This document shows, piece by piece, positions 1 to 47,773 of a stretch of DNA of 47,773 nt. A program made the translations under genes and the position numbers. Each line of letters starts with the position of its first letter. Position 1 is the stretch's first letter. A model generated the notes under the pieces. It had not been told where the DNA came from, ran no database searches, and was given only the letters and a program-made list of their open reading frames with translations. The DNA comes from Candidatus Uhrbacteria bacterium (GTDB lineage: Bacteria; Patescibacteriota; Patescibacteriia; UBA9934; GWF2-40-263). Location of the stretch: assembly GCA_016235605.1 (NCBI GenBank), contig JACRJW010000075.1:1-47773 (forward strand). The letters run 5' to 3'.

Positions 1-71
1 CTGTCTCCATTGGCACTCAGCCAATCTTTTAGATGCTCACGGAGCACTTCATGTCTTGTCACCATAGTCAT
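1..71 (-). CDS. N-terminal fragment of an ORF running off the left edge (hypothetical)
   Basis: rc ATG at 69-71 opens MTMVTRHEVLREHLKDWLSANGD with no stop before position 1; no family recognised. Confidence 0.2.
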   Translation of the reverse strand, partial: MTMVTRHEVLREHLKDWLSANGD

Positions 72-146
72 ATGGCGACACGGTAACCGAATTAGTATCT
101 ACCCGGAGAGTTTCGGTAACCTTTATTTGTATCTACAACGCAGGTC

Positions 147-175
147 TTGACACTCGTCTGTCCTGGTGGTAGGCT
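147..175 (+). promoter_or_regulatory. sigma70-like promoter
   Basis: TTGACA (147-152), 17-nt spacer, TAGGCT (170-175), just upstream of AAGGAGG/ATG192. Confidence 0.45.
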
Positions 176-191
176 CCCGCAAGGAGGTCAC

Positions 192-755
192 ATGTTCGAT
201 TCGATCCGCCAGTGGTTCTTCGTCAGGCTGTCCGAGCCGCTTCTCAGGCTGATCCAATCTCGGCGAAAAGTCGGCCCGCTCAAAGCGGCCGCGTTCGCCG
301 ACTTCGGAATCGGGTTCCTGCACGCATCGTTTCTTCCCGCCATGTTCTTCGTCTTGGTGTCGATGGGAGTCACGGATCTCTTCGGATCCACGAACATGAC
401 CAGGGGGCTGACGATCTCCTGTGCATTGGGGGTTTTAGTTCTCCTTCCCTCAGCGTTCAGGGCCTATGACCTCATCTGCGTCGCGGATGGACAAAAGTCC
501 GTTCTCAGTGGATGGACGGTTGGGATTGTCTCGACACTGACAGATACGTGGAAGTTCATCCCGGGACTGGTCTTCGTCTCCACGTTCGTCAGTGGTCTGA
601 TGTTCTTCCTTTCCACCCTGGCCGGGGTGTGGCAAGGGTTCGCGATGGGCCTGCTCGTCGGCGGACTTCTTCTCCTCGAGTGTGTCAGCAGCGCCATTTG
701 GCAGAACACGCGCGTACGCAACCTCGTCACGGCATCTACTCCCGCCAGGTACTAA
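192..755 (+). CDS. multi-pass membrane protein, unknown function (GC-richer orphan)
   Basis: AAGGAGG 181-187 then ATG 192 inside ORF-track 147..755; several hydrophobic segments; no family recognised. Confidence 0.55.
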   Translation: MFDSIRQWFFVRLSEPLLRLIQSRRKVGPLKAAAFADFGIGFLHASFLPAMFFVLVSMGVTDLFGSTNMTRGLTISCALGVLVLLPSAFRAYDLICVADGQKSVLSGWTVGIVSTLTDTWKFIPGLVFVSTFVSGLMFFLSTLAGVWQGFAMGLLVGGLLLLECVSSAIWQNTRVRNLVTASTPARY

Positions 756-785
756 CTGGCGGAATTTTATTTTAGAGAGACCTCT

Positions 786-1700
786 TTACACTCTCAAAAA
801 CCGTCTCATGGCCAGAATCGTGGAAAAAATCGAGACCGTGACGAGGCCGAGGAATTCCACTCCGAAAATCATCAAACCGTTTTGCGTAAAATACTCCATG
901 AGACCAGCAGACTCCGTGCCAAAGTAGACGCCAAACTGAGGCTCAAGAACAGACAGAACGGGAAACAAAATCGCGAGCGTGACTGTCAAGGCAATGAAAC
1001 TCATGAGGATCATCTCCAAATAAAACGGCGCTTTGATGAACCCATTGCTGGCGCCAACCAGTCGCATGATGCCGATCTCCTCTCGGTGGATGAAGATGCC
1101 GATGCGCACCGTGTTGAAGACGATGAGGATCGCGATCAGGAGAAAAATGACCGAGAGAGCGACGCCAAACGTCTGGATCCGATCTGTGGTCGTGCGAATG
1201 CGCTCAACGATTTGTTCGTAATCTGAAAAATCTTTATCGCGGATGTCATCGCGGAACTGCGGATTCTCAAGCGCATCCAAGATGACTTCAAAATCCGCGG
1301 CCTTGTTTGCCTTCACGACAAGCGTTGGGCCAAATGGATTCTCCCCGAGCTCCTGAAGCGATGCCATGATCTCCTCGTCGTTCACGTGACGCGCCACGAA
1401 TTGATCGTAGGCTTCTTGCGCCGTGATCGTCTCGACATCCCTCACTTGAGAAAGGCTCCGTAAGTACGACACCGCACCGTCAACGGTTTCCTGTTCGACG
1501 TAATCCTGAAAATAGACTGAGACCTCAACTTTGTCCTCGACCAGCCCAATCGCCTGTTGCGCCACCACGTTCAAGACGAGCAAAATGTCCACGGTCATGA
1601 GTGTCATCGTGAGCATGCTGATCGTGATCACGGACAACCAAAAATTCCTCCAAAAATTTTGAAAGGCAAATTTTGTGACACGGTAGCTGGAGACGAGCAT
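786..1700 (-). CDS. ftsX: cell-division ABC permease-like protein FtsX
   Basis: 304 aa; N-terminal TM, large extracytoplasmic loop, three C-terminal TMs; directly downstream of ftsE. Confidence 0.85.
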   Translation of the reverse strand: MLVSSYRVTKFAFQNFWRNFWLSVITISMLTMTLMTVDILLVLNVVAQQAIGLVEDKVEVSVYFQDYVEQETVDGAVSYLRSLSQVRDVETITAQEAYDQFVARHVNDEEIMASLQELGENPFGPTLVVKANKAADFEVILDALENPQFRDDIRDKDFSDYEQIVERIRTTTDRIQTFGVALSVIFLLIAILIVFNTVRIGIFIHREEIGIMRLVGASNGFIKAPFYLEMILMSFIALTVTLAILFPVLSVLEPQFGVYFGTESAGLMEYFTQNGLMIFGVEFLGLVTVSIFSTILAMRRFLRV

Positions 1701-1739
1701 AAGGTGGAAAAGGTAGATGAGGTGGACGAGGTGGTGAGG

Positions 1740-2420
1740 CTAGAGGCGATAACGTCCTTCTTCAACGTCAGACGTAATCTTTCCATCCTCAAGTGTGATC
1801 ACCCGTTTCTTGAGCGCGTTCACGACTTCACGATCATGGGTCACGAGCGCCACGGTGGTGCCAAACTCGTTGATCTTTCTCAAGAGGTCGACGATCTCCC
1901 GCGTGTTGATGGTGTCCAAGTTCCCGGTCGGTTCATCTGCCACAAGAACCTTTGGTGAGTGCACAAGGGCTCGGCCGATCGCCACGCGCTGCTGCTCGCC
2001 GCCTGAAAGCTGACGCGGATAGCGATCGATCATGGGTTCCAGATTGACGATTTTCAAGACCGCTGGGACGACTTCTCGGATTCGATGCGGTTTCTCCCCG
2101 GCCACCTGCAGGGCAAAGGCGATATTCTCGTACACCGTCTTCATGGGGAGCAACTTGAAATCCTGGAACACCACACCGATCTGGCGGCGAAGGAGCGGAA
2201 CGTCACGATCTTGAATGTTGGTGATATCCCAGCCGCCAATCTCGATGGTGCCGCGCGTGGGACGTTCCTCGGCAAACAAGAGCTTGGCAAGCGTGGACTT
2301 CCCTGTTCCGCTTTTTCCCACAATCGAAACAAATTCTCCAGGACGAATGTGGAGGCTGACGCCCTCAACGCCCACGACGTTTGGGGGATAGATTTTGGAA
2401 ACATGCTTGAGACGGATCAT
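1740..2420 (-). CDS. ftsE: cell-division ATP-binding protein FtsE
   Basis: Walker A GKSGTGKST, ABC signature LSGGEQQR, Walker B LVADEPTGNLD; ATGA overlap with upstream gene. Confidence 0.9.
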   Translation of the reverse strand: MIRLKHVSKIYPPNVVGVEGVSLHIRPGEFVSIVGKSGTGKSTLAKLLFAEERPTRGTIEIGGWDITNIQDRDVPLLRRQIGVVFQDFKLLPMKTVYENIAFALQVAGEKPHRIREVVPAVLKIVNLEPMIDRYPRQLSGGEQQRVAIGRALVHSPKVLVADEPTGNLDTINTREIVDLLRKINEFGTTVALVTHDREVVNALKKRVITLEDGKITSDVEEGRYRL

Positions 2421-3261: not shown

Positions 3262-3335
3262 GCGGGATTAGTATAGTGGCAGTATGTCAGCTTCCCAAGC
3301 TGAAGGCGCGGGTCCGATTCCCGTATCCCGCTCCA
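3262..3335 (+). tRNA. tRNA-Gly (anticodon CCC)
   Basis: Acceptor GCGGGAT/ATCCCGC, anticodon arm TCAGC-TTCCCAA-GCTGA, encoded CCA. The T-loop reads TCCGATT, with C at the usually invariant U55. Confidence 0.9.
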
Positions 3336-3403: not shown

Positions 3404-3432
3404 TTGACAAAAAGCGGTTTTTCGAGTATGAT
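3404..3432 (+). promoter_or_regulatory. sigma70-like promoter
   Basis: TTGACA (3404-3409), 17-nt spacer, TATGAT (3427-3432); GGAGG 3448-3452 follows. Confidence 0.5.
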
Positions 3433-3456
3433 GGCGCCTCACAATTCGGAGGTGAG

Positions 3457-3879
3457 ATGTCCGAGACTTGGGCGGGTTCCCCGTTTGAGAACCCGAGTGC
3501 ACAGAGGATCGGAAGGTGGATCGGCCTGCTCTTCGACCAGCCGTTCCCGTTCCAAGAAGCCGTACAGAGCGTCCGGGCACAGCGCAAGAGCTGGCAACCG
3601 GGTTACATGCCTCTGTCCAACGTCGTTGAGCTCACGATGGCCAATGACACGAAGATCACCGGAACTTCTTCCCAGGAGACCGCGAGCCTCGATACGGAAA
3701 CGAACGAAGTCTGCGTGATCCTCACGCAGTGGGACGGCCCGTTCTTCACCTGGGCGACTGTCACGATCAATGGCGTCGAGATCCAGGTCGAGGCGTGGAT
3801 GAACCCCGCCGAACCTCGCCGCGAATCGCAACCCCGAAGCCCAATGGTGGTCACCCCTGCACCTGATCCCGAGGACTGA
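3457..3879 (+). CDS. hypothetical protein (GC3-rich orphan between two tRNA genes)
   Basis: ATG preceded by GGAGG at 4-nt spacing; third codon positions mostly G/C; own promoter and terminator; no family recognised. Confidence 0.6.
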   Translation: MSETWAGSPFENPSAQRIGRWIGLLFDQPFPFQEAVQSVRAQRKSWQPGYMPLSNVVELTMANDTKITGTSSQETASLDTETNEVCVILTQWDGPFFTWATVTINGVEIQVEAWMNPAEPRRESQPRSPMVVTPAPDPED

Positions 3880-3899
3880 CCTCACCGCCATCACCTCGC

Positions 3900-3958
3900 A
3901 AGACCCTTCGACGTAGGCCAGCCCAGCTGGCCTCGGCTCAGGGTCTTTTCCTTTTTTT
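3900..3958 (+). terminator. compound hairpin plus T-run
   Basis: AAGACCCT/AGGGTCTT outer stem encloses GGCCAGCCCAGCTGGCC (3916-3932), followed by TTTCCTTTTTTT. Confidence 0.55.
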
Positions 3959-3988
3959 GGTCGTTTGTTATCATCCTCGCGTCCCTAT

Positions 3989-4063
3989 GCCGATGTAGCT
4001 CAGCGGTAGAGCAATGCTTTCGTAAAGCAGAGGTCGTGGGTTCAATCCCCACCATCGGCTCCA
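3989..4063 (+). tRNA. tRNA-Thr (anticodon CGT)
   Basis: Acceptor GCCGATG/CATCGGC, D arm GCTC..GAGC, anticodon loop TTCGTAA, T arm GTGGG-TTCAATC-CCCAC, encoded CCA. Confidence 0.9.
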
Positions 4064-8843: not shown

Positions 8844-8851
8844 AGTGATGA

Positions 8852-8923
8852 GGTCGTAGGTTTTAGGTGGTAGGTGGTAGAAAAATATCCGAATGTGCTC
8901 CCTACAACCTACTCCCTACAACC
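8852..8923. repeat. type-B heptad-repeat imperfect palindrome between GT2 and murD
   Basis: C-less arm GGTCGTAGGTTTTAGGTGGTAGGTGGTAG pairs with G-less arm CTACAACCTACTCCCTACAACC (about 18-19 of 22 positions). Confidence 0.7.
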
Positions 8924-9572
8924 TTTTTCGGATATGAGCGACCCTCACCACCACCATCGCCTTGACGATCTGATACGACATGCGTGCATATTGTAGCACA
9001 GCTCTCAGAATACCGACTTTCTGGTATTTTCGGCGGATCGTGAGGCCTGGAAGTTTGACCGCGCACAAGACGGCTCCGCGAGAGCGACAAAAATAATTGA
9101 GTGCAGATTCGATCATGAAACCGTGAAGGAACCTCCCTGGGACTCCTTCAAACACAGATCGTTGCATGGCCCGTTCACCGGAGATGAGTGGAAGATGTTT
9201 CGTCAAAGATGTGATCCAACGTCCTCGATCACGAAGCCCGACGTTCATGGCACACGCTCCGTCCACCACAGGCGCGACGAGTCGCTCAATATGGTCGACG
9301 TTGAGTCCAATCAAGTCTGCATCGAAGAACACGACGATAGGGGCGTCTGTCTGAGTGACGCCAAAACGCATTGCCTCGCCTTTTCCACTATTTGGAAAAA
9401 GCTCATGGACCCTTGCCCCTGCCGCTCGTGCGACGTGTCCGGTCCGGTCGCTTGATCCGTCTGAGACAACGATCACCTCCTGGATGAAGGGCGACGCCTT
9501 GACGACAGAGACGACGGTCCCAATCGTCACTTCTTCGTCGTACGCGGGAATAATCGCTGTCACTTTTGTCAT
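8916..9572 (-). CDS. family-2 glycosyltransferase
   Basis: IIPAYDEE, VVSDGSSD and FFDADL (DxD) motifs; ATGA overlap with upstream gene. Confidence 0.8.
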   Translation of the reverse strand: MTKVTAIIPAYDEEVTIGTVVSVVKASPFIQEVIVVSDGSSDRTGHVARAAGARVHELFPNSGKGEAMRFGVTQTDAPIVVFFDADLIGLNVDHIERLVAPVVDGACAMNVGLRDRGRWITSLTKHLPLISGERAMQRSVFEGVPGRFLHGFMIESALNYFCRSRGAVLCAVKLPGLTIRRKYQKVGILRAVLQYARMSYQIVKAMVVVRVAHIRKRL

Positions 9573-10240
9573 AGTCTTTTGTTGTGCCGACGCAACAGCA
9601 TCAGTTGCTCTTCGATCGCGTGCTCGAGCATCGCGCCTCGTGATTGCAGGCGCTCCACGCTCTCGAAGTCTTCCATCGTATGCAAAACGCTCGACAGGGA
9701 CTGCCTGACTCTTTGGAGATACGTGAGCGCTAACAGATACTCCCCCTCCGCCACCGTGTCTGCGAGGGGATCATCGTGCATCTGTTCACAGAGCGCGGCA
9801 AAAATCTTGATCGGAATGAGATTCACATTCGCGTAGGCACGGAAAAAATGCTGACGATCGTGGTCGTCCCGATCATACCCAGCTTTGGCAAGACCCCGCA
9901 GGAGTGCGGCCCACAGGCGCGCACTCTGATACAACGGATGCTGACGAATGCCCAAGAGAACATGGTCTTCTTCCTCGTCTGCGTCCGCGGGCGACTCCAC
10001 AACCGGAGGCACAGGATGCCGATCTTCGTGCAACATCCCCATACTCAACTTGAGCGTGAGTTCTGCATCGGCGAGTTCTTCGGTCTGTCGTTGTTCTTGA
10101 AGGACGGCCGCCTCCTGTGTCATCGGCGCTTCACGGGGATCCGTGCCGAATGCGGCATATAAATCATCGAGTTCATCTTCAAGGAGATCGACCTCGTCGC
10201 GATGGAAGAGCCAAGGATATTCGTGATCGTGAAGGGACAT
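9569..10240 (-). CDS. hypothetical acidic helical protein
   Basis: ORF-track 9569..10324 trimmed to ATG 10240 (MSLHDHEYPW), downstream of the ATPase stop at 10272; no family recognised. Confidence 0.5.
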   Translation of the reverse strand: MSLHDHEYPWLFHRDEVDLLEDELDDLYAAFGTDPREAPMTQEAAVLQEQRQTEELADAELTLKLSMGMLHEDRHPVPPVVESPADADEEEDHVLLGIRQHPLYQSARLWAALLRGLAKAGYDRDDHDRQHFFRAYANVNLIPIKIFAALCEQMHDDPLADTVAEGEYLLALTYLQRVRQSLSSVLHTMEDFESVERLQSRGAMLEHAIEEQLMLLRRHNKRL

Positions 10241-10271
10241 AGGAGAAGGAAGGAGGAATTTGGAAGTAGGA

Positions 10272-14338: not shown

Positions 14339-14414
14339 GGGTATTAGGTTGTAGGGAGTAGGTTATAGGGAGAAAATTTCTGCAAGCCTACAACCTAAAA
14401 CCTACAACCTACAA
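14339..14414. repeat. type-B heptad-repeat imperfect palindrome between ftsW and murG
   Basis: GGGTATTAGGTTGTAGGGAGTAGGTTATAGGGAG ... CCTACAACCTAAAACCTACAACCTACAA; the right arm overlaps the last ftsW codons. Confidence 0.7.
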
Positions 14415-15521: not shown

Positions 15522-15640
15522 TCTCCCAAAACTCACGATCTTTGCTTTCACGGGCGCCCAGGCACCTCCTCAACGTACGTGTGTAGTACGTTTCGGAGGC
15601 TGCCAGCCCGTTCAAGCAAATCTCATTGAGTTTTGGGAGA
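15522..15640. repeat. about 120-nt rod-like hairpin element, copy 1
   Basis: Perfect 14-bp closing stem TCTCCCAAAACTCA/TGAGTTTTGGGAGA; the interior is near-identical to 43804-43894. Confidence 0.75.
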
Positions 15641-17696: not shown

Positions 17697-17962
17697 ACAA
17701 ATGGAAGTTGGAAGTTGGAAATTAGAAGTTGGAATGAGAGAGGACAGGGAGAATATAACGGAATGCGGAAAAACTGTCAAACGATCAAGTGACGCACTTC
17801 TATCCATATGGTTAAGAGTTCGTCGCGGAGTTTTTTCGATGAGAAAGAAAAACCCCCCGTCGCCCCTCGAGAATCTCGGGGCTATGGTGGGCAGGCCCCG
17901 CCGAACAACGAGTCATCCGTGGGATGTTTCTCGCCTGTTGGCAGGGTCGTTGAGCCGATGGC

Positions 17963-18469: not shown

Positions 18470-18497
18470 GGTTCCTCCTCAAGATTAGGAACGCTTC

Positions 18498-18526
18498 AAG
18501 ATAGCACAAGATCACGGTTTTGACAA
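18498..18526 (-). promoter_or_regulatory. candidate promoter overlapping a 9-bp-arm palindrome
   Basis: Minus strand TTGTCA, 17-nt spacer, TATCTT; ATCACGGTT-ttgac-AACCGTGAT (18511-18533) overlaps the -35. Confidence 0.35.
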
Positions 18527-26192: not shown

Positions 26193-26195
26193 TAA

Positions 26196-29447: not shown

Positions 29448-29462
29448 TATTATGAGAGTTGT

Positions 29463-29735: not shown

Positions 29736-29767
29736 CAGTCATTTCGAATGAAACAAAGCCCAACTCT

Positions 29768-30089
29768 ATGACCAACGCAAAAAATTTTCTCGGTAACATA
29801 GTTGACGTCACGGTCGATCGTCCTCTTGGTTCGAAACACCCAACTCACGGCTTTACGTACTCAGTGAATTACGGCTTTATCCCGGAGACGAGATCACCAG
29901 ATAGAGAAGAACTCGATGCGTACGTCTTGGGTGTCAACCAACCGCTCAAAACTTTCCATGGTCAGTGTGTCGCTGTCATTCACCGGGCCAACGACGATGA
30001 CGACGATCACCGACGATCGAATCTGTCAAGCGACTCATTTTCAAGAACAATACTTTCAGTCCGATATCATTCGATCACAAGAATCTTAA
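29768..30089 (+). pseudogene. small inorganic-pyrophosphatase-like gene, apparently frameshifted or internally deleted
   Basis: N-part VDRPLGSKHP..F.Y.VNYGFIP......EELDAYVLG....F.G.C.A.IHRANDDDD is in frame 1. The family-like C-end ITDDRICQATHFQEQYFQSDIIR is in the +1 frame from about 30006 and stops at 30087-30089. Confidence 0.45.
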
Positions 30090-30182
30090 CCTTGCTTGCG
30101 AGTACCTGAGACGTCGTTCCCGCCAAAGGCGGGCGCGGCGCGAACGACGTGGCCTGCCATGTACGAACGGTCCGTCTGGTGG

Positions 30183-34200: not shown

Positions 34201-34229
34201 CTTGACGGCCTCAAACGGCAACGGTAAAA
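34201..34229 (+). promoter_or_regulatory. sigma70-like promoter
   Basis: TTGACG, 17-nt spacer, TAAAAT. Confidence 0.45.
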
Positions 34230-34297
34230 TCGCGCCGTGTTTACGAAGACGCTTTTGTTTTCGAACACATCCATGATTCTCTCCTGTCGGAGTTCCC

Positions 34298-34822
34298 TTG
34301 CCGCCCACCGCCCCTTCCCTCCAGAGCCTGTACGAAGAATCCCCCTCCTCCCAGGCTACCCATCATCTCCATTCCTTCCCCGACGAAGCGCGTGCGCAGA
34401 TCGGGACGGAAGGAGAGAGCAGGCACATCAGCAACCTCCTCCCCGAGACGGGCGCCTGCGTGCTCGTCACGGTGCACGACCTGGTCGATGACGCGCGTGG
34501 CATCCGCCGCGTCGTGGACAAGGTCGGAAGCCCCAAGCAGGTCTTCGCGGCCACGTGCTCCCAGCCCAGCTACGGGGAGACGTTCCGCACCTCGATCGAC
34601 TGGGCAAAGAAGATCGGCCACGCGGGCGAAGTGATCCTCGTCTCCCACGAACTCGCGGCGCTCTTGGGCGCACAGGCTCATCACGGCAGGCTTCGCAACG
34701 GCATCGTGATCGTGCACGACGGCAAGATCGTCTGGAGCAAGATGGCGGATGTCCACCGTCCCAACACGCCGCACCTCACCGGCAGCGACTTCGACGAGGC
34801 GTTCGACCGCTACAACCGGTAG
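34298..34822 (+). CDS. hypothetical protein, possibly thioredoxin-fold (GC3-rich orphan); start uncertain
   Basis: Strong G/C bias at third positions in this frame; C-part ..ILVSHELAALLG.......RNGIVIVHDGKIVW resembles the redoxin beta-alpha-beta end; TTG start taken from the ORF track, no ATG nearby. Confidence 0.45.
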   Translation: MPPTAPSLQSLYEESPSSQATHHLHSFPDEARAQIGTEGESRHISNLLPETGACVLVTVHDLVDDARGIRRVVDKVGSPKQVFAATCSQPSYGETFRTSIDWAKKIGHAGEVILVSHELAALLGAQAHHGRLRNGIVIVHDGKIVWSKMADVHRPNTPHLTGSDFDEAFDRYNR

Positions 34823-34899: not shown

Positions 34900-35055
34900 T
34901 TACTTGGTCTCTTTGTGCATCACGTGCCCTTTGCACCATTTACAAAACTTCTTCATCTCAAGACGGTCCTTGAGCTTTTTCTTGTTCTTTTTACTTTGGT
35001 ACCCAACGCGCTTGCACTGTGTACACTCCAAATTGACGAGGTTATCTTGTGACAT
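34900..35055 (-). CDS. rpmG: 50S ribosomal protein L33
   Basis: Hand translation gives MSQDNLVNLECTQCKRVGYQSKKNKKKLKDRLEMKKFCKWCKGHVMHKETK (51 aa, CxxC...CxxC); absent from the ORF track because it is under 60 aa. Confidence 0.85.
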   Translation of the reverse strand: MSQDNLVNLECTQCKRVGYQSKKNKKKLKDRLEMKKFCKWCKGHVMHKETK

Positions 35056-35106
35056 AGAGAGGTTATTTCGGTTGAAGACTAACGGGATCGAGTAAAAGTG
35101 TCAATG

Positions 35107-40617: not shown

Positions 40618-41664
40618 CTAGTCCGTTGCGGAAGCGACACCGAGATACACGACCCCTGACTCATCAGGATCCACGATCATCGCCCGTGGGACGCGAGCGG
40701 TTGGAAGCCGCTCCGTATCCCACGTCGATCCGGCATCGTCTGAATGATAGAACGTCGAGTTCGCGGCGTAGTAGAGCGTGTCAGGATCAGCCACGTCCAT
40801 GCCCACGGCACGGATGGTGACTTGACCGGCGGACGTCACTAACTGAACCGCTTCCCATGTCGCGCCAAAATCTTCTGAACGCACCAGTCCATACCCGGTG
40901 GCCGCGATCACCACTCCAGAATCTTCACTTTGGATCATGGTATACACATCCTGGGACTTTTGCAGGTCGCTCAAGCCGCCATCCACTTCTTCCCAGTTTG
41001 AACCTGCATCTGCGGTTTTGTAAAGACCTTTCCCGTACGTTGAGACAAGGACTTTCCTGGAGTCAGTGGTGTGAATCAAGATACTGGAAATTTCCTCACC
41101 GGTTTTGAGGACTGTCTGCCAGGTGTCGCCTGAGTCCGCGCTTTTGAGCACGTCGCCATTGGAGAGGCCCATCCAGATCGTGCGTGCATTGAACCAGTCC
41201 ACCGTCACCTGCACGACACTCACACCAGAACGGTTATCGACATACGTTTCAGAATCAAACGAACGCATGCAATCGTCCGTGCGGTAGAGACGCGCCCCTT
41301 TGGCCACATAGACCGTGCACACGTCCGTGGGATCCACCTCGATGTGATAAATCAGACCGTCCGCGAGGGCGTCATTCTCCGGTTGCCGCCAGGAGACGCC
41401 GGAATCTTCCGAATACAACATCCCGTTTTGACGCGTCCCAATGTACAGGAACGTATCATCTTGTGGATCCATTTCCATATTGAGCACGTCGGTGGTCGCA
41501 AGCGTTCCGATGCCTGAAGCGGTTGGAACGATCACCGTCTGCGTCCAATCTTGTCCAGCGTTTATGGATGTAAATACTCCGCCGTCGGAGCTAGAGGACG
41601 AGGAGCTGGAACAACCAGCGCCAATGAGTAAAAGAGAAAGAGCGATGAGTGAAAAGCCTTTCAT
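40618..41664 (-). CDS. BNR/Asp-box repeat beta-propeller lipoprotein
   Basis: Lipobox IGAGC plus poly-Ser; repeated SxDxGxTW boxes (SEDSGVSW, SADSGDTW, TADAGSNW, SEDFGATW, SDDAGSTW). Confidence 0.7.
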   Translation of the reverse strand: MKGFSLIALSLLLIGAGCSSSSSSSSDGGVFTSINAGQDWTQTVIVPTASGIGTLATTDVLNMEMDPQDDTFLYIGTRQNGMLYSEDSGVSWRQPENDALADGLIYHIEVDPTDVCTVYVAKGARLYRTDDCMRSFDSETYVDNRSGVSVVQVTVDWFNARTIWMGLSNGDVLKSADSGDTWQTVLKTGEEISSILIHTTDSRKVLVSTYGKGLYKTADAGSNWEEVDGGLSDLQKSQDVYTMIQSEDSGVVIAATGYGLVRSEDFGATWEAVQLVTSAGQVTIRAVGMDVADPDTLYYAANSTFYHSDDAGSTWDTERLPTARVPRAMIVDPDESGVVYLGVASATD

Positions 41665-41667
41665 AGG

Positions 41668-42570
41668 TTAGATGCTCAGAGCAATATGCTCGAGAGCTAA
41701 ATGAGGATTGATATTATGACGGGCCGCTTGGCGGGTTTCACAGAGGCGATTGAGAAAAGATACGAGAGGTGGACAGGTAGATGAGGTGGTGAGGAGAAGT
41801 TGACGGCGGGCGACGGTTTGGAGTTCTGTAATCACTTTCTGTAAACGAGAGGCACTGTTCACTTCACCTTTTGGAATGAACTCCATCACGAGACGCAGAC
41901 GCTCCGGCAAACTCGCGGCGAGAAATGCTTCTGCTTGCGCACGATCCGTTTCACGCACGGCTCGGTACGCACTATCTTTGAGGAACCGCAGAGCGAGTCC
42001 AGGCCGGCCTTCGCTGTGAAGCGCGGCTTCGTGTGCATCTGATTGACTGAACCCAGCGCAGATCAGTCCATCAACGATCGCCGTCTGCGCGACAACCGTG
42101 AAGCGCATCACCTGACAACGCGACGCAATGGTTGCAGGGACATCTTCAAGACTCGGCGCGCGCAGAATAAAAAGCGTCTGACCCTTGGGCTCCTCGAGCG
42201 TTTTCAAAAGCGCGTTCGCGCCGCCCATGGAGAGCTTGTGCGCTTCCTCGATGAAGATGACTTTGGTGTCGCCAGTAAACGATGTCATGGATAGTCGACC
42301 AACGAGATCACGCACCTGTCGCACCGAGATATTCGATTTGCGCTTGCCCGTCTTTTCATCATCGAGGCGCTTGAGCTCGAGATAGTCTGGCTGAGTCTCT
42401 AAATTTTGCACTCCCAGAACCTCACGACACAGAGCCTTTGCCACCATCGTCTTCCCGACGTGATCTGAACCGATAAAAAGCAGGGCATGAGGCAGGGATG
42501 TATGCGCGACCATCTTGCCAAGAACCTCTTTTGCCGGAGTGTGACCGATGATCGAAGAGAAGAGCTCCAT
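41668..42570 (-). CDS. holB: DNA polymerase III subunit delta' (HolB)
   Basis: AAA+ clamp-loader pattern HALLFIGSDHVGKT, IFIEEAHKLS, TLEEP; trimmed to ATG 42570 (MELFSS). Confidence 0.75.
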   Translation of the reverse strand: MELFSSIIGHTPAKEVLGKMVAHTSLPHALLFIGSDHVGKTMVAKALCREVLGVQNLETQPDYLELKRLDDEKTGKRKSNISVRQVRDLVGRLSMTSFTGDTKVIFIEEAHKLSMGGANALLKTLEEPKGQTLFILRAPSLEDVPATIASRCQVMRFTVVAQTAIVDGLICAGFSQSDAHEAALHSEGRPGLALRFLKDSAYRAVRETDRAQAEAFLAASLPERLRLVMEFIPKGEVNSASRLQKVITELQTVARRQLLLTTSSTCPPLVSFLNRLCETRQAARHNINPHLALEHIALSI

Positions 42571-42692
42571 ACGGACAATAGTATAGCACGCTGCCAAAAT
42601 GGCTCTGTGATGTCCAGCATAGTAAACAGATGTTTATCAGCTTATCTTAACTAATTTTAGATAAAATTCGGAAGCTTAGCTCCCGAAGAGTC

Positions 42693-42721
42693 TTGACAAA
42701 GTTGACAAAATATGATAGACT
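42693..42721 (+). promoter_or_regulatory. sigma70-like promoter of the accessory block
   Basis: TTGACA (42693-42698), 17-nt spacer, TAGACT (42716-42721); a GGAAGCTTAGCTCCCG box lies 7 bp upstream. Confidence 0.5.
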
Positions 42722-42758
42722 GCGCCCATACAAGATCACACAAAGCACCATACAAAAC

Positions 42759-42884
42759 AGAAACTTTTGAAAAAAGATGAGATGCGAAGTGCTGGAGGTG
42801 AGTAAAGGGCGAGGCGTAGGTAAATCCTACGGTGAGGTCTTTACGAACCGAAGCACGAGCAGATCGCTTTTTTCAAAAGTTTCT
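42759..42884 (+). ncRNA. 126-nt hairpin closed by a perfect 18-bp stem
   Basis: AGAAACTTTTGAAAAAAG/CTTTTTTCAAAAGTTTCT; inner helices GTAAAG/CTTTAC and CGTAGG-taaat-CCTACG. Confidence 0.55.
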
Positions 42885-42897
42885 AAACATTCTCTGG

Positions 42898-43418
42898 GGA
42901 GAGAGTACTAGGCCAAGTAAATGGCCATCAGGCAAAGGTGTTAGGTATTAGGTTATAGGTTGTAGCAAATAACTACATATCTACGATCTAAAGCCTAATA
43001 CCTAAAAGCCGGTTCCTGCATGTATCTCTCCTAACTCGATGCATTCAGCAACCGGTTTTTTGTCTGCCTACCACCTACAACCTAATACCTACTACCTGAT
43101 TTCTTCAGCCTCATGGAGGAGAGAGTACCCGTCCATCCAATGCTTCGGCAGAGGATGGCGGTGATCGCCAAATGGTCCGACTAGGCCTCGGCTTACTCGT
43201 TCCATATGCATGGCGATCACGAAGCATATTGTCCTTCGGGAGAATCACTGCTTCATCACTACCTCCAGTAGGTTGCAGGGATCATCCGATGCAGAAACTC
43301 GGAGGAGAGAGAAAAGGACCACCAAATGACTCGACTGGGTTTACTCACTCGATTCATACGCCCGGTGATCCTCGGCCTACACCAGCCCTCGGGCAGGTCA
43401 CTGGACCATTCTTCTCCG
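42898..43418 (+). ncRNA. three tandem GGAGAGAG-box structured units (unassigned RNA family)
   Basis: Unit 1 42898-43031, unit 2 43114-43267 (closing helix TGGAGG/CCTCCA around three hairpins, two capped by cUUCGg), unit 3 43300-43418; units 2 and 3 share collinear sequence blocks. Confidence 0.45.
43009..43062 (+). terminator. terminator-like hairpin plus T6 inside the leader (possible attenuator)
   Basis: CCGGTT..TGCAT..ATGCA..AACCGG followed by TTTTTTG; its loop contains the 3' strand (TATCTCTCC) of the unit-1 closing helix. Confidence 0.4.
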
Positions 43419-43489
43419 AATTCCTGTGTCGGACCAGAACCCACCGACCAGAACACCGGCAAGCCACAAACTTGCCAAAGGAAAATCAC

Positions 43490-43711
43490 ATGGATCATTC
43501 GATCCTCCTCCACCGTGCCCCGACTCCGTTCTTCTTCTGCACCGCCGACGAGGACCGCTTCCTGGCAACCGGCATCGCCAACTGCACCGGCACCGAGGTT
43601 CCCAGCGCGGCGCTTCGTCGCCGCTTCGGCGTCCCGGTCTACGTCGTCCCCCGCGGCACCAACCGCATCCCGCCCAGCGCCAACCAGGAGCTGGTGGCAG
43701 TCGCGAAGTGA
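43490..43711 (+). CDS. 73-aa hypothetical protein (first ORF of the GC-rich island)
   Basis: ATG 43490 preceded by AAGGAAA and by hairpin GGCAAG-ccacaaa-CTTGCC; GC3-rich from this point; the upstream part of ORF-track 43172..43711 is the structured leader. Confidence 0.45.
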   Translation: MDHSILLHRAPTPFFFCTADEDRFLATGIANCTGTEVPSAALRRRFGVPVYVVPRGTNRIPPSANQELVAVAK

Positions 43712-43788
43712 ACGGCTGACGCGACCGGGAACTCACGGTGAGGGTGTGCACAACACACTCTCACCGATCCCTCAAAGCACATCAGGAA

Positions 43789-43909
43789 CCTCTGCAAAAC
43801 TCGCGATCTTTGCTTTCACAGGCGCCCAGGCACCTCCTCAACGTACGTGTTTAGTACGTTTCGGAGGCTGCCAGCCCGTTCAAGCAAATCTCATCGAGTT
43901 TTGCAGAGG
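43789..43909. repeat. about 120-nt rod-like hairpin element, copy 2
   Basis: Closing stem CCTCTGCAAAACTCG/CGAGTTTTGCAGAGG; the interior differs from copy 1 at only 2 positions. Confidence 0.75.
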
Positions 43910-43950
43910 TTTGATCAATAACTGATGTCCTTCGAGGGATTACCAAACTC

Positions 43951-44133
43951 TATAGTCATCACACCATGAAAGAGGACTTTAGACGCCACGCCTGTAGATG
44001 GGATGCGCCGTCCTGGAGCGTGGAAAAACCGCAGAGGTATCCGTAGATACCTTGAGGATTTTTCCACGCGAAGGACAAGCAGACCGCCACGGGCGTGGAT
44101 GGATAAATCCTGTTTCATGGTGTGATGACTATA
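43951..44133. repeat. 183-nt rod-like element bounded by perfect 21-bp inverted repeats
   Basis: TATAGTCATCACACCATGAAA (43951-43971) and TTTCATGGTGTGATGACTATA (44113-44133); inner helices CCACGCC/GGCGTGG, GTCCT/AGGAC, CGTGGAAAAA/TTTTTCCACG, AGGTATC/GATACCT. Confidence 0.7.
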
Positions 44134-44269
44134 TTGACCTCCCAGTTCCTCTCGTCAAGGAATACATCTTCAAAAAACCCGGCCAGCTCAGCTGGCCATC
44201 TGGAGCGCTCGGGCTTGGCAGCCTGTGCACGACGAAACTCCAGAAAATTTCCTTAAGGAGGAAAACGCC

Positions 44270-44938
44270 ATGGGAACCAAAACACCAATCGTGATGCCCG
44301 ATCGCGCCGTTCCCCTGCCCGCGCCAGCCCGCAAGTCCAAGAAGCCCGCCAGCCCCCCGACCATCCACCAGGTCGCGGAGTCGGCCAAGCGCTTCTGCAA
44401 GGAGATGAGTCTCGGGGACGCGTTCGTGGCACCGCTCTTCGCCTTCGCGGTCAGTTCGGTCCATACGGCGCAGAGCCTTGTGCGCTTCGCGGTCGCGGCC
44501 GTCCGTGCCGAGCAGGGGCGCAGCAAGCTCCGCGGCGACCGCCACGAAATCGTGAATGCCTTCAAGGACTACCTCGAGAAGAACCGCCAGTACGACTTCA
44601 GGGCTCCCAAGCAGGAGCAGGAGGCTCGCAACCTTCTGCTGCGTGGGATCGAGCAGGGCGAGTTCCTTCGCCGCGGCCCCGCCGTGACCGAGGTGATCCT
44701 CGCGTGGACCATCCCGGCGTTCGACGCGGTGGAGGTGTCCGACTTCGCGCAGATCGATCTCCCCAACATGATCAGGGGGAACCTCCGTCTGGCGGAGTGG
44801 CTCCTCCAGAACGCGCTCAAGGACACGCCGGAGCAGAAGGCGCTCTCCGAGTTCACCGCGGCGTACGAGGCCGCCAAGGCGAAGGACGAGGAGTCCGAAG
44901 AGGACGCCGGGGACGAGGACGAACAGGCAGCGAGCTAG
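44270..44938 (+). CDS. 222-aa hypothetical protein with acidic C-terminal tail (island ORF2)
   Basis: AAGGAGG then 7-nt spacer then ATG 44270; very strong G/C at third positions; no family recognised. Confidence 0.65.
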   Translation: MGTKTPIVMPDRAVPLPAPARKSKKPASPPTIHQVAESAKRFCKEMSLGDAFVAPLFAFAVSSVHTAQSLVRFAVAAVRAEQGRSKLRGDRHEIVNAFKDYLEKNRQYDFRAPKQEQEARNLLLRGIEQGEFLRRGPAVTEVILAWTIPAFDAVEVSDFAQIDLPNMIRGNLRLAEWLLQNALKDTPEQKALSEFTAAYEAAKAKDEESEEDAGDEDEQAAS

Positions 44939-44962
44939 CCATGAACGGCTAGCGACCACACG

Positions 44963-45044
44963 GGGCGAGACGACTCTGTACGAGAGTCGTCTCGCCCAGC
45001 CCTAAGAGATCATGAGGCAAGCCTCGTGAACTGCTAGGGCTTCA
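44963..45044 (+). repeat. 82-nt double-hairpin 3' module, copy A
   Basis: 15-bp hairpin GGGCGAGACGACTCT-gtacg-AGAGTCGTCTCGCCC, then CCCTA..CATGAGG-caag-CCTCGTG..TAGGG. Confidence 0.75.
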
Positions 45045-45107
45045 ACCTTCTGCGCCTTGCCCAAGGCAACTGTTTTTTCCACCAATCACTACAACCAGGA
45101 GTCCCCA

Positions 45108-46259
45108 ATGCGCGAATTGACCTTCGCCGACAACGGCACCGTCGCCCCTGGCGACGAGAACGCTCCCGACCTCTGGGAGCTCGCCCTGGACAATCTCGAC
45201 ATCGAAGTCGAAACCCGCCCCTGGCGCGAGATGGACGAGTTCGAGGCCCCGGAGCAGATCTGGGACGAGACGAACGCGCTCGCGCAGGCCGAGGCGGAAG
45301 CCGAGGCCGACAAGTACAAGTTCGACGACGAGACTGACGAGATCGGCGAGGCGATCTACACCGGTGGCTACGACTACCACCGCCCCCGCGATCGCTTCGA
45401 CGATCAGGCCGACGAGCTCAAGATCCAGAACCACACGCTCGTGCGCAAGTACAGGTTCAAGGTGACGGATATCCTGGGAGTCAACGGACAGCTCCTCGGA
45501 GTCGACTACCTCGCTGTGGTGCTCGCCGCGTGCAAGGCGGCCGACGAGATCGCGGATCTCGCCGGCAACGGTGAGGTCTGCAGGGTCATCGCGCAGGCCA
45601 GCGGCTGGAAGGGCGAACTCCCCACGAGGCTCTCGGGCTTCGGGGTGGAAACGTTCTACCGCAGTGCGGGTGCCCTCCAGACCCGTGTCGCCGAGATCAA
45701 GGCCCGCAAGCCGAAGCACAGCGTCATCGTGATGCCCGACCGTCGCGTCGTAGAGCCCGTCCCCTCGCAGACCCCGAGCCGGTCGAAGGGCGCGCCGGTG
45801 ATCCTCGTGGTCCCGACGCAGAAGCCCGAGGGGAGCGACCTCTTCGGTCGGGTGAAAACCCCATCGGGTCTGGCGTTCCGGTGCGTGTGCGGCTGCGGCA
45901 ATCTCGTTCTCGAGAAAGTCGCCGTCGTACCGCCCACCAGTGCGATGCGCGACCGGCAGAACGGCGGCCGCGTGGGATCGAAAGATCTCTGGCGCCACGC
46001 GTTCGGCGAGCGGTGCATCCGTCGGTTCGGCCGCGGATTCTCCCTCAAGGAGAAGATGAACAAGATGATGGACGAAGAGTCCAAGCGCGAGGCCGCGAAC
46101 CGAACCCTGCGTCCGCGCTTCGGGGACGTCATCGGCCACGGTGGCGCCTTCGGCGGATCGGGCAAGGGCCCCACGCCGGGCCAACTCTCCCACCAGGCCG
46201 CACGGGCGGAGGCCGACCGCCAGCTGCGTCTCAAGATGCAGTCGGCGGGCAGGAAGTAG
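45108..46259 (+). CDS. 383-aa hypothetical protein: acidic N-region, CxCxC cluster, basic C-region (island ORF3)
   Basis: AGGAG then 6-nt spacer then ATG 45108; GC3-rich; shares an IVMPDRxV..P.P segment with ORF2. Confidence 0.65.
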   Translation: MRELTFADNGTVAPGDENAPDLWELALDNLDIEVETRPWREMDEFEAPEQIWDETNALAQAEAEAEADKYKFDDETDEIGEAIYTGGYDYHRPRDRFDDQADELKIQNHTLVRKYRFKVTDILGVNGQLLGVDYLAVVLAACKAADEIADLAGNGEVCRVIAQASGWKGELPTRLSGFGVETFYRSAGALQTRVAEIKARKPKHSVIVMPDRRVVEPVPSQTPSRSKGAPVILVVPTQKPEGSDLFGRVKTPSGLAFRCVCGCGNLVLEKVAVVPPTSAMRDRQNGGRVGSKDLWRHAFGERCIRRFGRGFSLKEKMNKMMDEESKREAANRTLRPRFGDVIGHGGAFGGSGKGPTPGQLSHQAARAEADRQLRLKMQSAGRK

Positions 46260-46301
46260 ATCCACGCGATCTACACGGCCAGCTCAACTGGCCACGGACG
46301 A

Positions 46302-46381
46302 GGGCGAGCGATTCTGTACGAGAATCGTTCGCCCGACCCTAAGAATCCATGAGGCACGCCTCGTGAACTGCTAGGGTTTCA
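46302..46381 (+). repeat. 82-nt double-hairpin 3' module, copy B
   Basis: GGGCGAGCGATTCT-gtacg-AGAATCGTTCGCCC, then CCCTA..CATGAGG-cacg-CCTCGTG..TAGGG; collinear with copy A. Confidence 0.75.
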
Positions 46382-46408
46382 TACCCAAACTCTCTCCCAA
46401 GGAGAAGC

Positions 46409-46447
46409 AAAAAACCGTCCTGAGTTTATCGAAGGGCGGTTTTTTGT
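46409..46447. terminator. bidirectional-type terminator closing the island
   Basis: AAAAA-ACCGTCC-13 nt-GGGCGGT-TTTTTTG. Confidence 0.55.
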
Positions 46448-46473
46448 TTGCCAATATCCTACAACACGACCGC

Positions 46474-46502
46474 TTGACGGACTCCCTGGGGGGTGTTAAT
46501 CT
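46474..46502 (+). promoter_or_regulatory. sigma70-like promoter
   Basis: TTGACG, 17-nt spacer, TAATCT. Confidence 0.45.
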
Positions 46503-46565
46503 GCTTTATCGTTTCTGTGGTGGAAACGTTTCATTGCCTAACCGGCAAGGAGTGAGGAGGATCTG

Positions 46566-46721
46566 ATGGAAAGGAAAAGAGAGAGTCCTTTCGACGCCAT
46601 CGCTTTGCTCCACGAGTACGCAACTCGCTGGGCTCTGCGACTTGTACAAGGTCGGCAACATCTCGTGGATGCAGATCCACGGAGGTTCCAACCAACCTAC
46701 ATTTGCGACGGCGGCGGCTGA
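46566..46721 (+). CDS. 51-aa hypothetical peptide
   Basis: GAGGAGG then 5-nt spacer then ATG; MERKRESPFDAIALLHEYATRWALRLVQGRQHLVDADPRRFQPTYICDGGG; own promoter and terminator; below the ORF-track cutoff. Confidence 0.4.
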   Translation: MERKRESPFDAIALLHEYATRWALRLVQGRQHLVDADPRRFQPTYICDGGG

Positions 46722-46776
46722 CGACCTTTCCCTCTTTTCTCTCCTGAATTCCTCACCACAGACCTGACCACGACGA

Positions 46777-46806
46777 ACGGATCGCACGCGATCCGTATTA
46801 TTTTTG
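46777..46806. terminator. hairpin plus T-run between the convergent small ORF and trmB
   Basis: ACGGATC-gcacgc-GATCCGT followed by ATTATTTTTGG. Confidence 0.5.
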
Positions 46807-47592
46807 GGTGGATTGCTTCACGGGATATTCTTGGGCGCCTCGCCAGGCAAGTTCAAACATCGCCCTGACGACTTCCGCGATCTCGTGGCTGATAATGACA
46901 CAAGCCAACACGGCCGACTTATAAGAAAAAAGAAACACATGATTTCCACGGACTGTGACTTCGCCGTGGATGGGAAACTCGCTCCGAGGGAGCATACGCA
47001 CTTGCCCAACTCCCATATTTTCGTTTTCCAGTTTGGATGGATCGTCAACCAAAATAAGTTTCCGGGCAGAGACACCTGCCTTTCCTTCTTGATGGCGCAG
47101 GCGTTGCATGTGCTCAAGACGGCCGTGGACAAATTCCTCGGTCGCCAGTACGTCTTCACGCGGATAAATCTGTATAAAATCTCCAGGAAGTTTTTCAAAA
47201 ATCTGCCGTACCGTCTCTATCCCTTCTGGCCCTTCCAAATATCGCACTTGCGGCTTGGCCCCTTCAGCGTTGTAGAGATTTGTCAGCAACGGCATCACCT
47301 TCCCAAGCTCGAGTTCTTTTTCTGCCAACTCCTTCTGCTTGACCTGAATGATCGACATCAACCGATCTGGGCTCTCGGAAACATAAAATCGTCTCTTGCC
47401 TTTTTGGAACGTGGACATGAGCCCACGACTGGCAAGTGATTCGATCATCACATAGGTCGTCGCACGGTTGACGTGGGCCTTGTGGGAAATGTCTTGCACG
47501 GGAGAGGGTCCAAGCTCAAGAGCGGCGAGATAGACCCGCGCCTCTTTGTCGGAGAGCCCCAAGTGTTCAAGTTCTTGTTTGAGTTCGTCCAT
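46798..47592 (-). CDS. TrmB-family transcriptional regulator
   Basis: Trimmed to ATG 47592 (MDELKQELEHLGLSDKEARVYLAALELGPSPVQDIS...), a winged-helix TrmB N-domain. Confidence 0.8.
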   Translation of the reverse strand: MDELKQELEHLGLSDKEARVYLAALELGPSPVQDISHKAHVNRATTYVMIESLASRGLMSTFQKGKRRFYVSESPDRLMSIIQVKQKELAEKELELGKVMPLLTNLYNAEGAKPQVRYLEGPEGIETVRQIFEKLPGDFIQIYPREDVLATEEFVHGRLEHMQRLRHQEGKAGVSARKLILVDDPSKLENENMGVGQVRMLPRSEFPIHGEVTVRGNHVFLFSYKSAVLACVIISHEIAEVVRAMFELAWRGAQEYPVKQSTQK

Positions 47593-47603
47593 AATGGCTG
47601 ACA

Positions 47604-47773
47604 CTACACCATGGCTCTCAAACTGTCCAGAGTCTGCGCCGCTGTGCGTTCCCAAGAGAAATCTTGGACGCGTTGTCTGCCTTTTTGGACAAGCTCAGCA
47701 CGCAGGCTTCCCTCTTTGACCACCCGCGAGAGCGCATGCGCCCAAGCTTCTGGTTCCCCAGGTGGCACCAAAA
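47604..47773 (-). CDS. C-terminal fragment of a glycosyltransferase (GT1-like), 5' end outside the window
   Basis: rc frame open from the window edge: ..LRAELVQKGRQRVQDFSWERTAAQTLDSLRAMV, stop at 47604-47606; the FSWE..A pattern is typical of GT1 C-termini. Confidence 0.45.
   Translation of the reverse strand, partial: LVPPGEPEAWAHALSRVVKEGSLRAELVQKGRQRVQDFSWERTAAQTLDSLRAMV

Follow-up and report, generated by a model that had tools for sequence, protein, structure and literature searches.

The window analysed here covers positions 1–47,773 of contig JACRJW010000075.1 from a Candidatus Uhrbacteria bacterium (assembly GCA_016235605.1). Its genes appear to start translation in two ways. The housekeeping backbone lacks Shine-Dalgarno (SD) motifs, and a small set of genes, mostly with high GC content at third codon positions (GC3), is led by them. 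These GC-rich SD-led genes are probably a second expression class that is resident in the lineage and conserved in its clade, and the contig would run two expression syntaxes. According to this reading, housekeeping genes would be translated without SD pairing: the first genes of operons, with a -10 box about 9 nt before the ATG, from leaderless or near-leaderless mRNAs; operon-internal genes through coupling by overlaps or gaps of 1–4 nt; and a few genes, such as rpmA and rpmG, from SD-free leaders. The second class would comprise small, mostly monocistronic genes for clade-specific membrane proteins and proteins without functional assignment, together with a four-gene module beside trmB. Each unit would have a full -35/-10 promoter, a leader of 10–60 nt, an SD motif 4–8 nt before the ATG and its own terminator.

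SD Motifs, GC3 and Promoters in the Window

The comparison is based on a manual table of 51 window genes, whose starts were fixed from Pfam profile coordinates and overlaps. SD strength is expressed as the hybridization energy (dG, in kcal/mol) to the canonical 16S rRNA tail, which may differ from the tail of this lineage. Sites with dG ≤ −8.5 are regarded as strong and sites with dG ≤ −6 as weak or better; genes with GC3 ≥ 0.70 are regarded as GC3-rich. SD-like sites are seen in eight of the nine GC3-rich genes, versus 7 of the 41 others (Fisher p = 9e-5). Strong sites are seen in five of the nine, versus 7% of the 41 genes with GC3 < 0.70 (p = 0.003). This backbone rate is at or below that of random positions, 9.6% of which reach dG ≤ −8.5, indicating that the backbone has no SD signal. 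A first-pass annotation of the contig, made from the sequence alone, had already described the backbone as SD-less. Backbone GC3 is 0.58 ± 0.07, versus 0.86–0.89 for the genes of the GC-rich island described below.

All eight SD-like motifs and all seven TTGACA-like-N17-TAnnnT promoters listed in that annotation are found where it placed them. It considered seven of the eight motifs strong. Based on the hybridization energy, five are strong, at starts 192 (−12.5 kcal/mol), 3457 (−14.9), 18469 (−11.5), 44270 (−11.1) and 46566 (−13.8), and three are weak, at 25255 (−5.9), 43490 (−6.2) and 45108 (−6.9). The distance between motif and ATG is 4–8 nt in every strong case, and the same spacing is seen in orthologues. 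The genes listed, which were termed orphans, are real genes, but two members of the class were overlooked: a DUF378 gene (22586–22374, minus strand) and an open reading frame (ORF) at 34298–34822 (plus strand). The GC richness attributed to the orphans is borne out by the association above, except for the PNP gene at 25255, whose GC3 of 0.67 is within the backbone range, and the gene at 46566 (0.54).

With a strict definition (at least five of six matches to TTGACA, N17, TAnnnT), 13 promoters are found, versus 1.6 ± 1.5 in dinucleotide shuffles. Six of them precede class members, as the first-pass annotation supposed for the orphans. Others precede rpmA (17780), rpmG (35104) and a non-coding transcript. 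The promoter type is thus common to both classes, and it is the SD motif, not the promoter, that separates them. Two backbone genes, lipo24558 and ndh2, are exceptions; their SD motifs directly follow a -10 box that ends 10–12 nt from the ATG.

The GC-Rich Island between holB and trmB

The GC-rich island (43082–46436, plus strand) has a GC content of 60–65% and is bracketed by 29-nt direct repeats (43053–43081 and 46437–46465). It contains gene C (43490–43711, 73 aa, GC3 0.86), gene B (44270–44938, 222 aa, GC3 0.89, SD AAGGAGG at 44255–44261) and gene A (45108–46259, 383 aa, GC3 0.88, AGGAG at 45097–45101), all on the plus strand. Gene A is itself bracketed by 53-nt direct repeats. The gene D unit follows (46474–46721, plus strand). 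It has a promoter TTGACG-N17-TAATCT, a hairpin in the 5' untranslated region (5'UTR), the SD GAGGAGG (46554–46560) and a reading frame for a small protein of 51 aa (46566–46721).

Scanning metagenome contigs for trmB gave 27 loci; related loci are designated here by L and a number. The GC-rich island lies beside trmB in 18 of the related loci, and on every contig long enough to show it, it continues up to holB. Past trmB, wherever the contig extends, 4–6 kb of GC-rich, opposite-strand genes are followed by holB-BNR-frr-glyQS. The island genes belong to four small families whose order is fixed: family C proteins have ~70 aa, those of B ~230 aa, those of A ~380 aa and a CxCxC motif, and those of D ~50 aa. 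A, B and C are present at the same locus in L086, L087, L089–L115 and L116–L118, and L086, L087 and L116–L118 have the same island arrangement. D homologues adjoin trmB in 15 loci, and GGAG, GAGG or AGGAGG is present upstream in 13 of the 13 with a readable start. Within the clade that has the island, trmB identity goes down to 52%.

Genes of related loci were called with a simple home-made gene finder; for the SD comparison their starts were set at the first ATG, blind to SD. Sites with dG ≤ −6 are seen in 79% of 34 island ORFs (GC3 ≥ 0.70, 15 loci) versus 16% of 177 backbone genes (Fisher p = 7e-13). Island GC3 is 0.73–0.96, while backbone GC3 in the same loci is 0.29–0.84. Synonymous sites of the island therefore stay GC-rich whatever the genome-wide GC content. 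Intergenic DNA inside the island is only 52–57% GC, indicating that the GC excess resides mainly in coding sequence and is strongest at third codon positions.

Two assemblies supply closer relatives. Backbone proteins are 62–96% identical to those of the window in GCA_016205975.1 (L082) and mostly 80–98% identical in GCA_023246355.1 (L116 and L119). Compared with the closest relative, L116, the proteins from holB to the TPR gene are 82–91% identical, versus 49% for A and 42% for C.

The island proteins have no match in Pfam, PHROG or PADLOC, and no locus in IMG/VR encodes a relative of family A. No mobility gene (integrase, transposase, conjugation or phage gene) is present in the island of the window or in those of L086, L087 and L116–L118, and neither a recombinase domain nor IntI was found; the flanks of the island are holB and trmB. 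An AlphaFold2 model of family A, from a six-sequence alignment, has a mean predicted local distance difference test score of 51.7 and is too poor to use. As a low-confidence guess, A might be a nucleic-acid-binding protein, given its zinc-ribbon-like CxCxC motif and basic tail, and the acidic-tailed B might be its partner. Common to A and B is the short motif (I)VMPDR-x-V-x-P-x-P, with a basic stretch rich in Pro and Ser behind it; it is located near the N-terminus in B and in mid-chain in A.

The neighbouring trmB (46798–47592) is 70% identical to that of L116 and 89% identical to that of L087, and trmB of L116 is 93% identical to that of L089. On these identities, trmB beside the island also appears to be of mosaic ancestry.

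SD-Led Units outside the Island

The first unit (147–755, plus strand) has a promoter TTGACA-N17-TAGGCT (147–175) and the SD AAGGAGG (181–187), and encodes a membrane protein of 187 aa (192–755, GC3 0.74). Its homologues are 31–39% identical, and the one in L088 also has a promoter and a CCGGAGG SD. The second unit (3404–3960, plus strand) is located between tRNA-Gly(ccc) (3262–3335) and tRNA-Thr(cgt) (3989–4063). It consists of a promoter TTGACA-N17-TATGAT, the SD GGAGG (3448–3452), a coding sequence (CDS) at 3457–3879 (140 aa, GC3 0.76) and a terminator hairpin. Orthologues occupy the same slot between the two tRNA genes in L082, L083 and L084, with flanking DPBB and SurA genes in L082. The L082 homologue, from GCA_016205975.1, is a Candidatus Uhrbacteria protein. 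The two proteins are 42% identical, while neighbouring proteins are 62–96% identical; the promoter, the 5'UTR and GGAGGTGAG-ATG are nearly unchanged. GC3 of the L082 copy is 0.86 against a backbone of ~0.75.

The third unit is on the minus strand between pyrG and rpmA (17830–18526). Its promoter is TTGTCA-N17-TATCTT (18526–18498), its SD is GAGGAGG (18480–18474), and a terminator follows the CDS (18469–17963), which encodes a membrane protein of 168 aa (GC3 0.78). In L119 (GCA_023246355.1), the orthologue occupies the same pyrG/rpmA slot with the promoter and an AGGAGG SD kept. The protein is 37% identical, compared with 94% for pyrG and 98% for rpmA. The DUF378 small membrane protein (22374–22586, minus strand, 70 aa, GC3 0.76, dG −10.4) is one of the additional class members, and its orthologue in the same pgi/bcp slot of L119 is 93% identical. 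The other, at 34298–34822 (unit 34202–34822, plus strand), has a promoter TTGACG-N17-TAAAAT, a TTG start, a weak GGAG and a terminator. It encodes 174 aa with GC1/2/3 of 0.65/0.46/0.85. It is overlain by a longer ORF on the minus strand, which is a composition artefact of the antisense type. No homologue of the 34298–34822 ORF is present in the related loci examined, and it has no Pfam match.

Two further genes were counted in the first-pass annotation among the orphans for which it suggested a donor, and this is supported for neither. One is the RRM RNA-binding protein gene (24596–24961, CDS 24707–24961, plus strand, GC3 0.73). It has a canonical promoter and a pyrimidine-rich leader of ~80 nt without SD. 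L119 has it in the same place, 98% identical and likewise SD-less. It is thus a native, conserved gene and not an orphan. The other is the PNP gene (CDS 25255–26112; unit 25125–26204, plus strand), with a promoter at 25205 and a weak SD GGAG (25246–25249). Every named homologue of PNP comes from Patescibacteria, and the homologue in L121 is 70% identical with GGAG kept. PNP is thus a native Patescibacteria gene. Its unit, bracketed by 55-nt direct repeats (25125–25179 and 26150–26204; 96% identical), looks like a repeat-flanked insertion.

The orphan ORFs show the periodicity GC3 > GC1 > GC2, and a terminator-type hairpin is located 3' of each. Promoter, SD, ORF and terminator hairpin are all present, as expected for the self-contained units the first-pass annotation had described. 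All six orphans tested against 1.84 billion representative proteins have homologues, which share invariant residues, and their own sequences are recorded with the same starts. No function can be assigned from Pfam, PHROG or PADLOC; the only PHROG match is a weak one, of DUF378.

The slots are fixed in relatives: tRNA-Gly/tRNA-Thr, pyrG/rpmA, pgi/bcp and holB/trmB. The class proteins are 37–60% identical in relatives, versus mostly 80–98% for their neighbours, and the promoter, the 5'UTR and the SD are conserved. Orthologues of 3457, 18469, 44270 and 45108 keep the SD, as do all 13 D-family genes with a readable start. The fixed syntenic slots and conserved signals indicate that the class is resident in the lineage. 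By these identities, its proteins diverge several-fold faster than their neighbours.

Starts of Backbone Genes

The SD-less backbone (786–42597, minus strand) includes ftsXE, the mur/fts cluster, rpmA, rpmG, pyrG, rplI, tpiA, glyQS, frr and holB. Thirteen backbone genes are coupled to the upstream gene, with anything from a 14-nt overlap to a 4-nt gap, and four of the 13 have ATGA overlaps. In 12 of about 15 backbone first genes, a TAnnnT box ends 7–13 nt (mode 9) before the ATG. Among 175 backbone genes of related loci, TAnnnT shows a ~2.3-fold positional enrichment at 6–11 nt. GeneMarkS-2 treats a Pribnow box at such spacing as leaderless transcription (PMC6028130). One of the genes with a leader is rpmG (ribosomal protein L33, 52 aa, 34900–35058, minus strand), which was absent from the first-pass list. 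It has a perfect TTGACA-N17-TAGTCT at 35104, a gap of 21 nt between the -10 box and the ATG, and no SD.

The leaders of murD, murG, M16, ftsX and rpmA are G-poor, of the CCACCT/CCTAC type, and correspond to the 3' arms of long hairpins. Long hairpins between operons are formed by GGTTGTAGG / CCTACAACC repeats (2934–2981, 8848–8924, 14340–14427 and 42936–43100); murD and murG have their G-poor leaders from the C/A-rich arms of these hairpins. Hairpins of a related family, GGAAGTTGG / CCAACTTCC, are located at 17700–17735, 22690–22739, 2825–2857 and 10238–10273.

In the public gene calls of L119 (6277–7860 and 11903–12925), pyrG and murG begin at internal ATGs behind GGAGG and hence are truncated. 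Those internal GGAGG sites encode Gly-Gly; the positions compared in the window are 14304 and 14334. In these SD-less genomes, SD-based start priors are therefore misleading. Annotation is affected in another way as well, in that codon models trained on the backbone choose the wrong strand in GC-rich genes.

SD Poverty across Patescibacteria

Among species representatives in GTDB, the nearest pyrG relatives of the window are Patescibacteria, mainly Candidatus Magasanikbacteria and Uhrbacteria, with 57–67% identity. Judged by these relatives, the contig belongs to an Uhrbacteria/Magasanikbacteria-like member of Patescibacteria (Candidate Phyla Radiation, CPR). The best-preserved gene order is that of the Uhrbacteria locus L021.

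SD poverty is general here. At most 22% of genes are SD-led in 60 of 67 pyrG-centred Patescibacteria loci, and many loci have none. In the 60 SD-poor loci, the rare SD-led genes are shorter than other genes, and 62% of them lack homologues in the other loci, versus 32% (p = 5e-5). No shift in GC3 is seen for these SD-led genes (p = 0.25), indicating that the link with GC3 is specific to the clade of the window. The high-GC relatives L113–L115 have backbones that are likewise SD-less, and the SD is therefore not a signature of a donor genome.

According to Tsurumaki et al. 2022 (PMC9297842), about half of Parcubacteria lack the anti-SD motif. In the clade of the window, SD motifs are conserved across species whose DNA is ~70% identical. 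This implies ribosomes with a usable anti-SD, and by this inference an anti-SD would be working in the lineage.

Origin and Maintenance of the Proposed Second Class

Instead of residing in the lineage, the units could be drawn from a mobile cassette pool inside the clade. At fixed hot spots, homologous recombination that is flank-anchored, or else site-specific recombination, would repeatedly exchange them for alleles of other Patescibacteria, high-GC ones among them, and their composition would reflect the pool and not vertical descent. We regard this as possible, but unlikely. It would account for the direct repeats around the PNP unit, gene A and the island, for the structured repeat found between cassettes in the window, L086 and L087, and for the extra 51-aa GC-rich SD-led gene in L119. 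High-GC relatives exist (L002, L113, L114 and L121), and the idea fits published data, in which other Patescibacteria account for most of the transfer detected into these bacteria (PMC12455944). However, no island contains an integrase, transposase or phage gene, and nearly all relatives have the same families at the same locus. Conservation is close to the backbone level in the promoter and 5'UTR but not in the CDS, a pattern that import of whole cassettes does not predict. The identity of family A is also positively correlated with that of trmB.

The first-pass annotation favoured repeated acquisition of cassettes from a donor that uses SDs and is richer in GC, for example the host if the organism is an episymbiont. 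Recent import of this kind is consistent with the higher GC3 and canonical signals, and with the ~65% GC contigs that carry the homologues of the 192 orphan (L088, taxonomy not established) and PNP (L121), each with several SD genes. But L121 has CPR-type features (an LTD-domain gene and G-poor repeat leaders), the backbones of high-GC relatives are SD-less too, and every named homologue belongs to Patescibacteria. Orthologues occupy identical slots with conserved regulatory DNA, and the island spans a clade of deep trmB divergence. The best homologues thus lie within the same lineage, making host import very unlikely, and the fallback of that annotation, a distinct regulatory class, fits the data. 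The strong promoters and strong SDs might instead suggest that the class is highly expressed and that its GC3 reflects codon optimization. Classic highly expressed genes are not GC3-rich, however (rpmA 0.53, rplI 0.64, frr 0.59). Highly expressed genes normally evolve slowly, whereas the class proteins diverge well beyond their neighbours; translational selection is accordingly given little credence. An artefact of chance motifs, spurious ORFs or chimeric assembly is hardly conceivable. GC-rich DNA does raise the chance rate of SD-like sites (13% at dG ≤ −8.5 in the island) and gives long antisense ORFs. Still, the ORFs have coding periodicity, their lengths and exact sequences are recorded as called genes with homologues and invariant residues, and the SDs are at conserved positions in orthologues. 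The exact window sequence is present in a public groundwater metagenome run. In an independent assembly of this source run, the depth is ~7x over both island and backbone, and a single contig spans the left island junction (40956 to 43688).

Several observations weigh against a resident class. The direct repeats around PNP and the island are signs of cassette turnover, and L119 has a single repeat copy and no PNP at that site. Island gene order and content vary between relatives (L116 and L087). Family A and trmB are only loosely linked in their identities (rho 0.57), and some pairs disagree: 93% for trmB goes with 57% for family A in one, and 69% for trmB with 67% for family A in another. The edges of the class are fuzzy, as seen in 46566, which is SD-led but not GC-rich, and RRM, which is GC-rich but SD-less. 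The bimodality noted by the first-pass annotation is strong as a class difference in related loci but weak as a mixture in the window: over the 51 genes, two components are favoured for dG by only 4.5 units of the Bayesian information criterion, and for GC3 they are not favoured. The home-made gene finder matched the manual starts for ~80% of the window genes it found. The 3' end of 16S rRNA was not found in the window or in 120 related loci (1.66 Mb), and none of the public RNA-seq runs contains the region. The persistent high GC3 also has no demonstrated cause.

Strand bias was considered as the cause of the high GC3 and rejected, as members are on both strands. Expression-linked codon bias was likewise set aside, since GC3 is not high in ribosomal-protein genes. 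One candidate process behind the GC3 offset is GC-biased gene conversion at recombination hot spots. It can be speculated, though with considerable doubt, that a family-level clade keeps a compartment of vertically inherited, hyper-evolving genes, with GC3 of ~0.75–0.95 against 0.29–0.84 for the genome and with the sole SD-dependent initiation. The offset would be upheld by a dedicated process, such as selection linked to the SD pathway, or GC-biased gene conversion at recombination hot spots for which the conserved promoters and terminators serve as anchors.

Comparison with Known Systems

The proposed two-class organization resembles group C of GeneMarkS-2 (for example Actinobacteria and Deinococcus; PMC6028130), where a Pribnow box lies ~10 nt before the starts of first genes, leadered genes have a second, SD start model, and genes of atypical composition form a separate class. 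In group C, however, most non-leaderless genes use the SD, whereas in the window internal operon genes are also SD-less, and the SD is confined to a small, clade-specific, fast-evolving and mostly GC3-rich class. As in SD-poor lineages, among them the Parcubacteria that lack the anti-SD motif (PMC9297842) and Bacteroidota, housekeeping genes are SD-less genome-wide and a handful of genes have strong SDs. Unlike in SD-poor lineages, the SD-led genes here are clade-specific genes at fixed loci, not ribosomal-protein genes. Their SDs are also conserved across species, arguing for a usable anti-SD. In Bacteroidota, the anti-SD is sequestered, and only a few mRNAs have a strong SD.

Genomic islands of Patescibacteria (PMC12455944) also have atypical composition, flanking direct repeats or tRNA genes, and accessory content without known function, with donors mostly from Patescibacteria. 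The GC content of the holB/trmB island is 0.60–0.65 against 0.537 for the window, direct repeats flank the island and PNP, and 3457 is located between two tRNA genes. Presence is not patchy across 18 related loci, and no named homologue comes from a foreign lineage. Unlike those genomic islands, this one has no mobility genes, and all relatives examined have it at the same locus. Its composition hardly varies across host genomes with GC3 of 0.29–0.84, and its regulatory DNA is conserved while its coding DNA is not. Integron cassette arrays are similar in having single-gene units split by a structured repeat and variable content at a fixed locus. Unlike in such arrays, no IntI is nearby, and each unit has its own promoter and SD, while integron cassettes are usually promoterless. 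The inter-cassette repeat appears to lack the attC end consensus. As for prophages, no phage hallmark protein is found among the orphans beyond the weak DUF378 match.

SD-poor Parcubacteria, leaderless start models and Patescibacteria genomic islands have already been described separately (PMC9297842, PMC6028130, PMC12455944). Literature searches found no description of an SD/GC3 partition or of a syntenically conserved SD-led GC3-rich class in CPR. The window offers a testable picture of an SD-poor CPR bacterium that splits translation initiation between gene classes. It shows what the SD may still serve, and predicts a functional anti-SD in a group of which half reportedly lost the motif. 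It also contains clade-wide loci, foremost holB/trmB and also the slots at tRNA-Gly/tRNA-Thr and pyrG/rpmA, with visibly different evolutionary regimes for protein sequence, for synonymous composition and for regulatory DNA. Such loci lend themselves well to studies of rapid evolution, or of a possible interaction with hosts, in uncultured bacteria that resemble episymbionts.

Repeats, Structured Elements and Other Features

A non-coding stretch adjacent to the island (42693–43081, plus strand) starts with a strong promoter, TTGACA-N17-TAGACT, and ends in a terminator (aaccggtttttt). The promoter and its flanks are conserved in L116, and the stretch may encode a small RNA. Copies of the motif GGGGAGAGAGTAC / GGAGGAGAGAGTA are located near 42905, 43113 and 43300. 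Searches against Rfam find only tRNAs, both at the gathering threshold and, for 42.6–44.3 kb, at E ≤ 1.

A hairpin element of ~110 nt is present at 42769–42875 (plus strand) and 24966–25071 (minus strand). The two copies are ~79% identical, with compensatory changes in the inner stem. The orthologous site of L116 lacks the 42.8-kb copy, and L119 lacks the one next to RRM. In this distribution, the element resembles a small insertion element or a mobile structured RNA. Two copies of a 109-nt repeat, 96% identical to each other, are found between mraY and ftsW (15527–15635) and inside the island (43795–43903). The depth over 43639–44231 is 37x versus ~7x elsewhere, indicating that this repeat is multicopy in the community. 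A fragment of it at 1–26 of L085 abuts the 18469 homologue. Upstream of gene B, an inverted repeat (43951–44133) has 45-nt arms that are 80% complementary and enclose 93 nt. Its outermost ~20 bp are perfect (TATAGTCATCACACCATGAAA...). It has no Rfam match and is a candidate structured RNA or DNA element.

A two-hairpin repeat of ~90 nt is located 3' of B (44952–45046) and A (46318–46381). It consists of GGGCGAG...CTCGCCC, then CCCTAAGAG.CCATGA-(stem)-CGTGAACTGCTAGGG. It recurs in L086 and L087 with compensatory changes, and there punctuates differently composed cassette arrays. It is a candidate terminator, processing site or recombination site. A likeness to the hammerhead core was judged by eye and rejected; the repeat has no Rfam match.

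The window has a GC content of 53.7% and seven tRNA genes, and pgi and sodA are also among its genes. In L119 (5812–6195) and L120 (28–411), a 127-aa gene of the 23S-rRNA-IVP/bAvd family is located between rplI and pyrG; the window does not have it. A segment of low GC content (28390–30109; 43–47% GC, GC3 0.35–0.48) surrounds tRNA-Trp (29222–29295). It encodes a 222-aa protein with a weakly HTH/HNH-like N-terminus, a GIY-YIG nuclease and a truncated inorganic-pyrophosphatase ORF. The segment probably represents an insertion of its own, biased in composition in the opposite direction.

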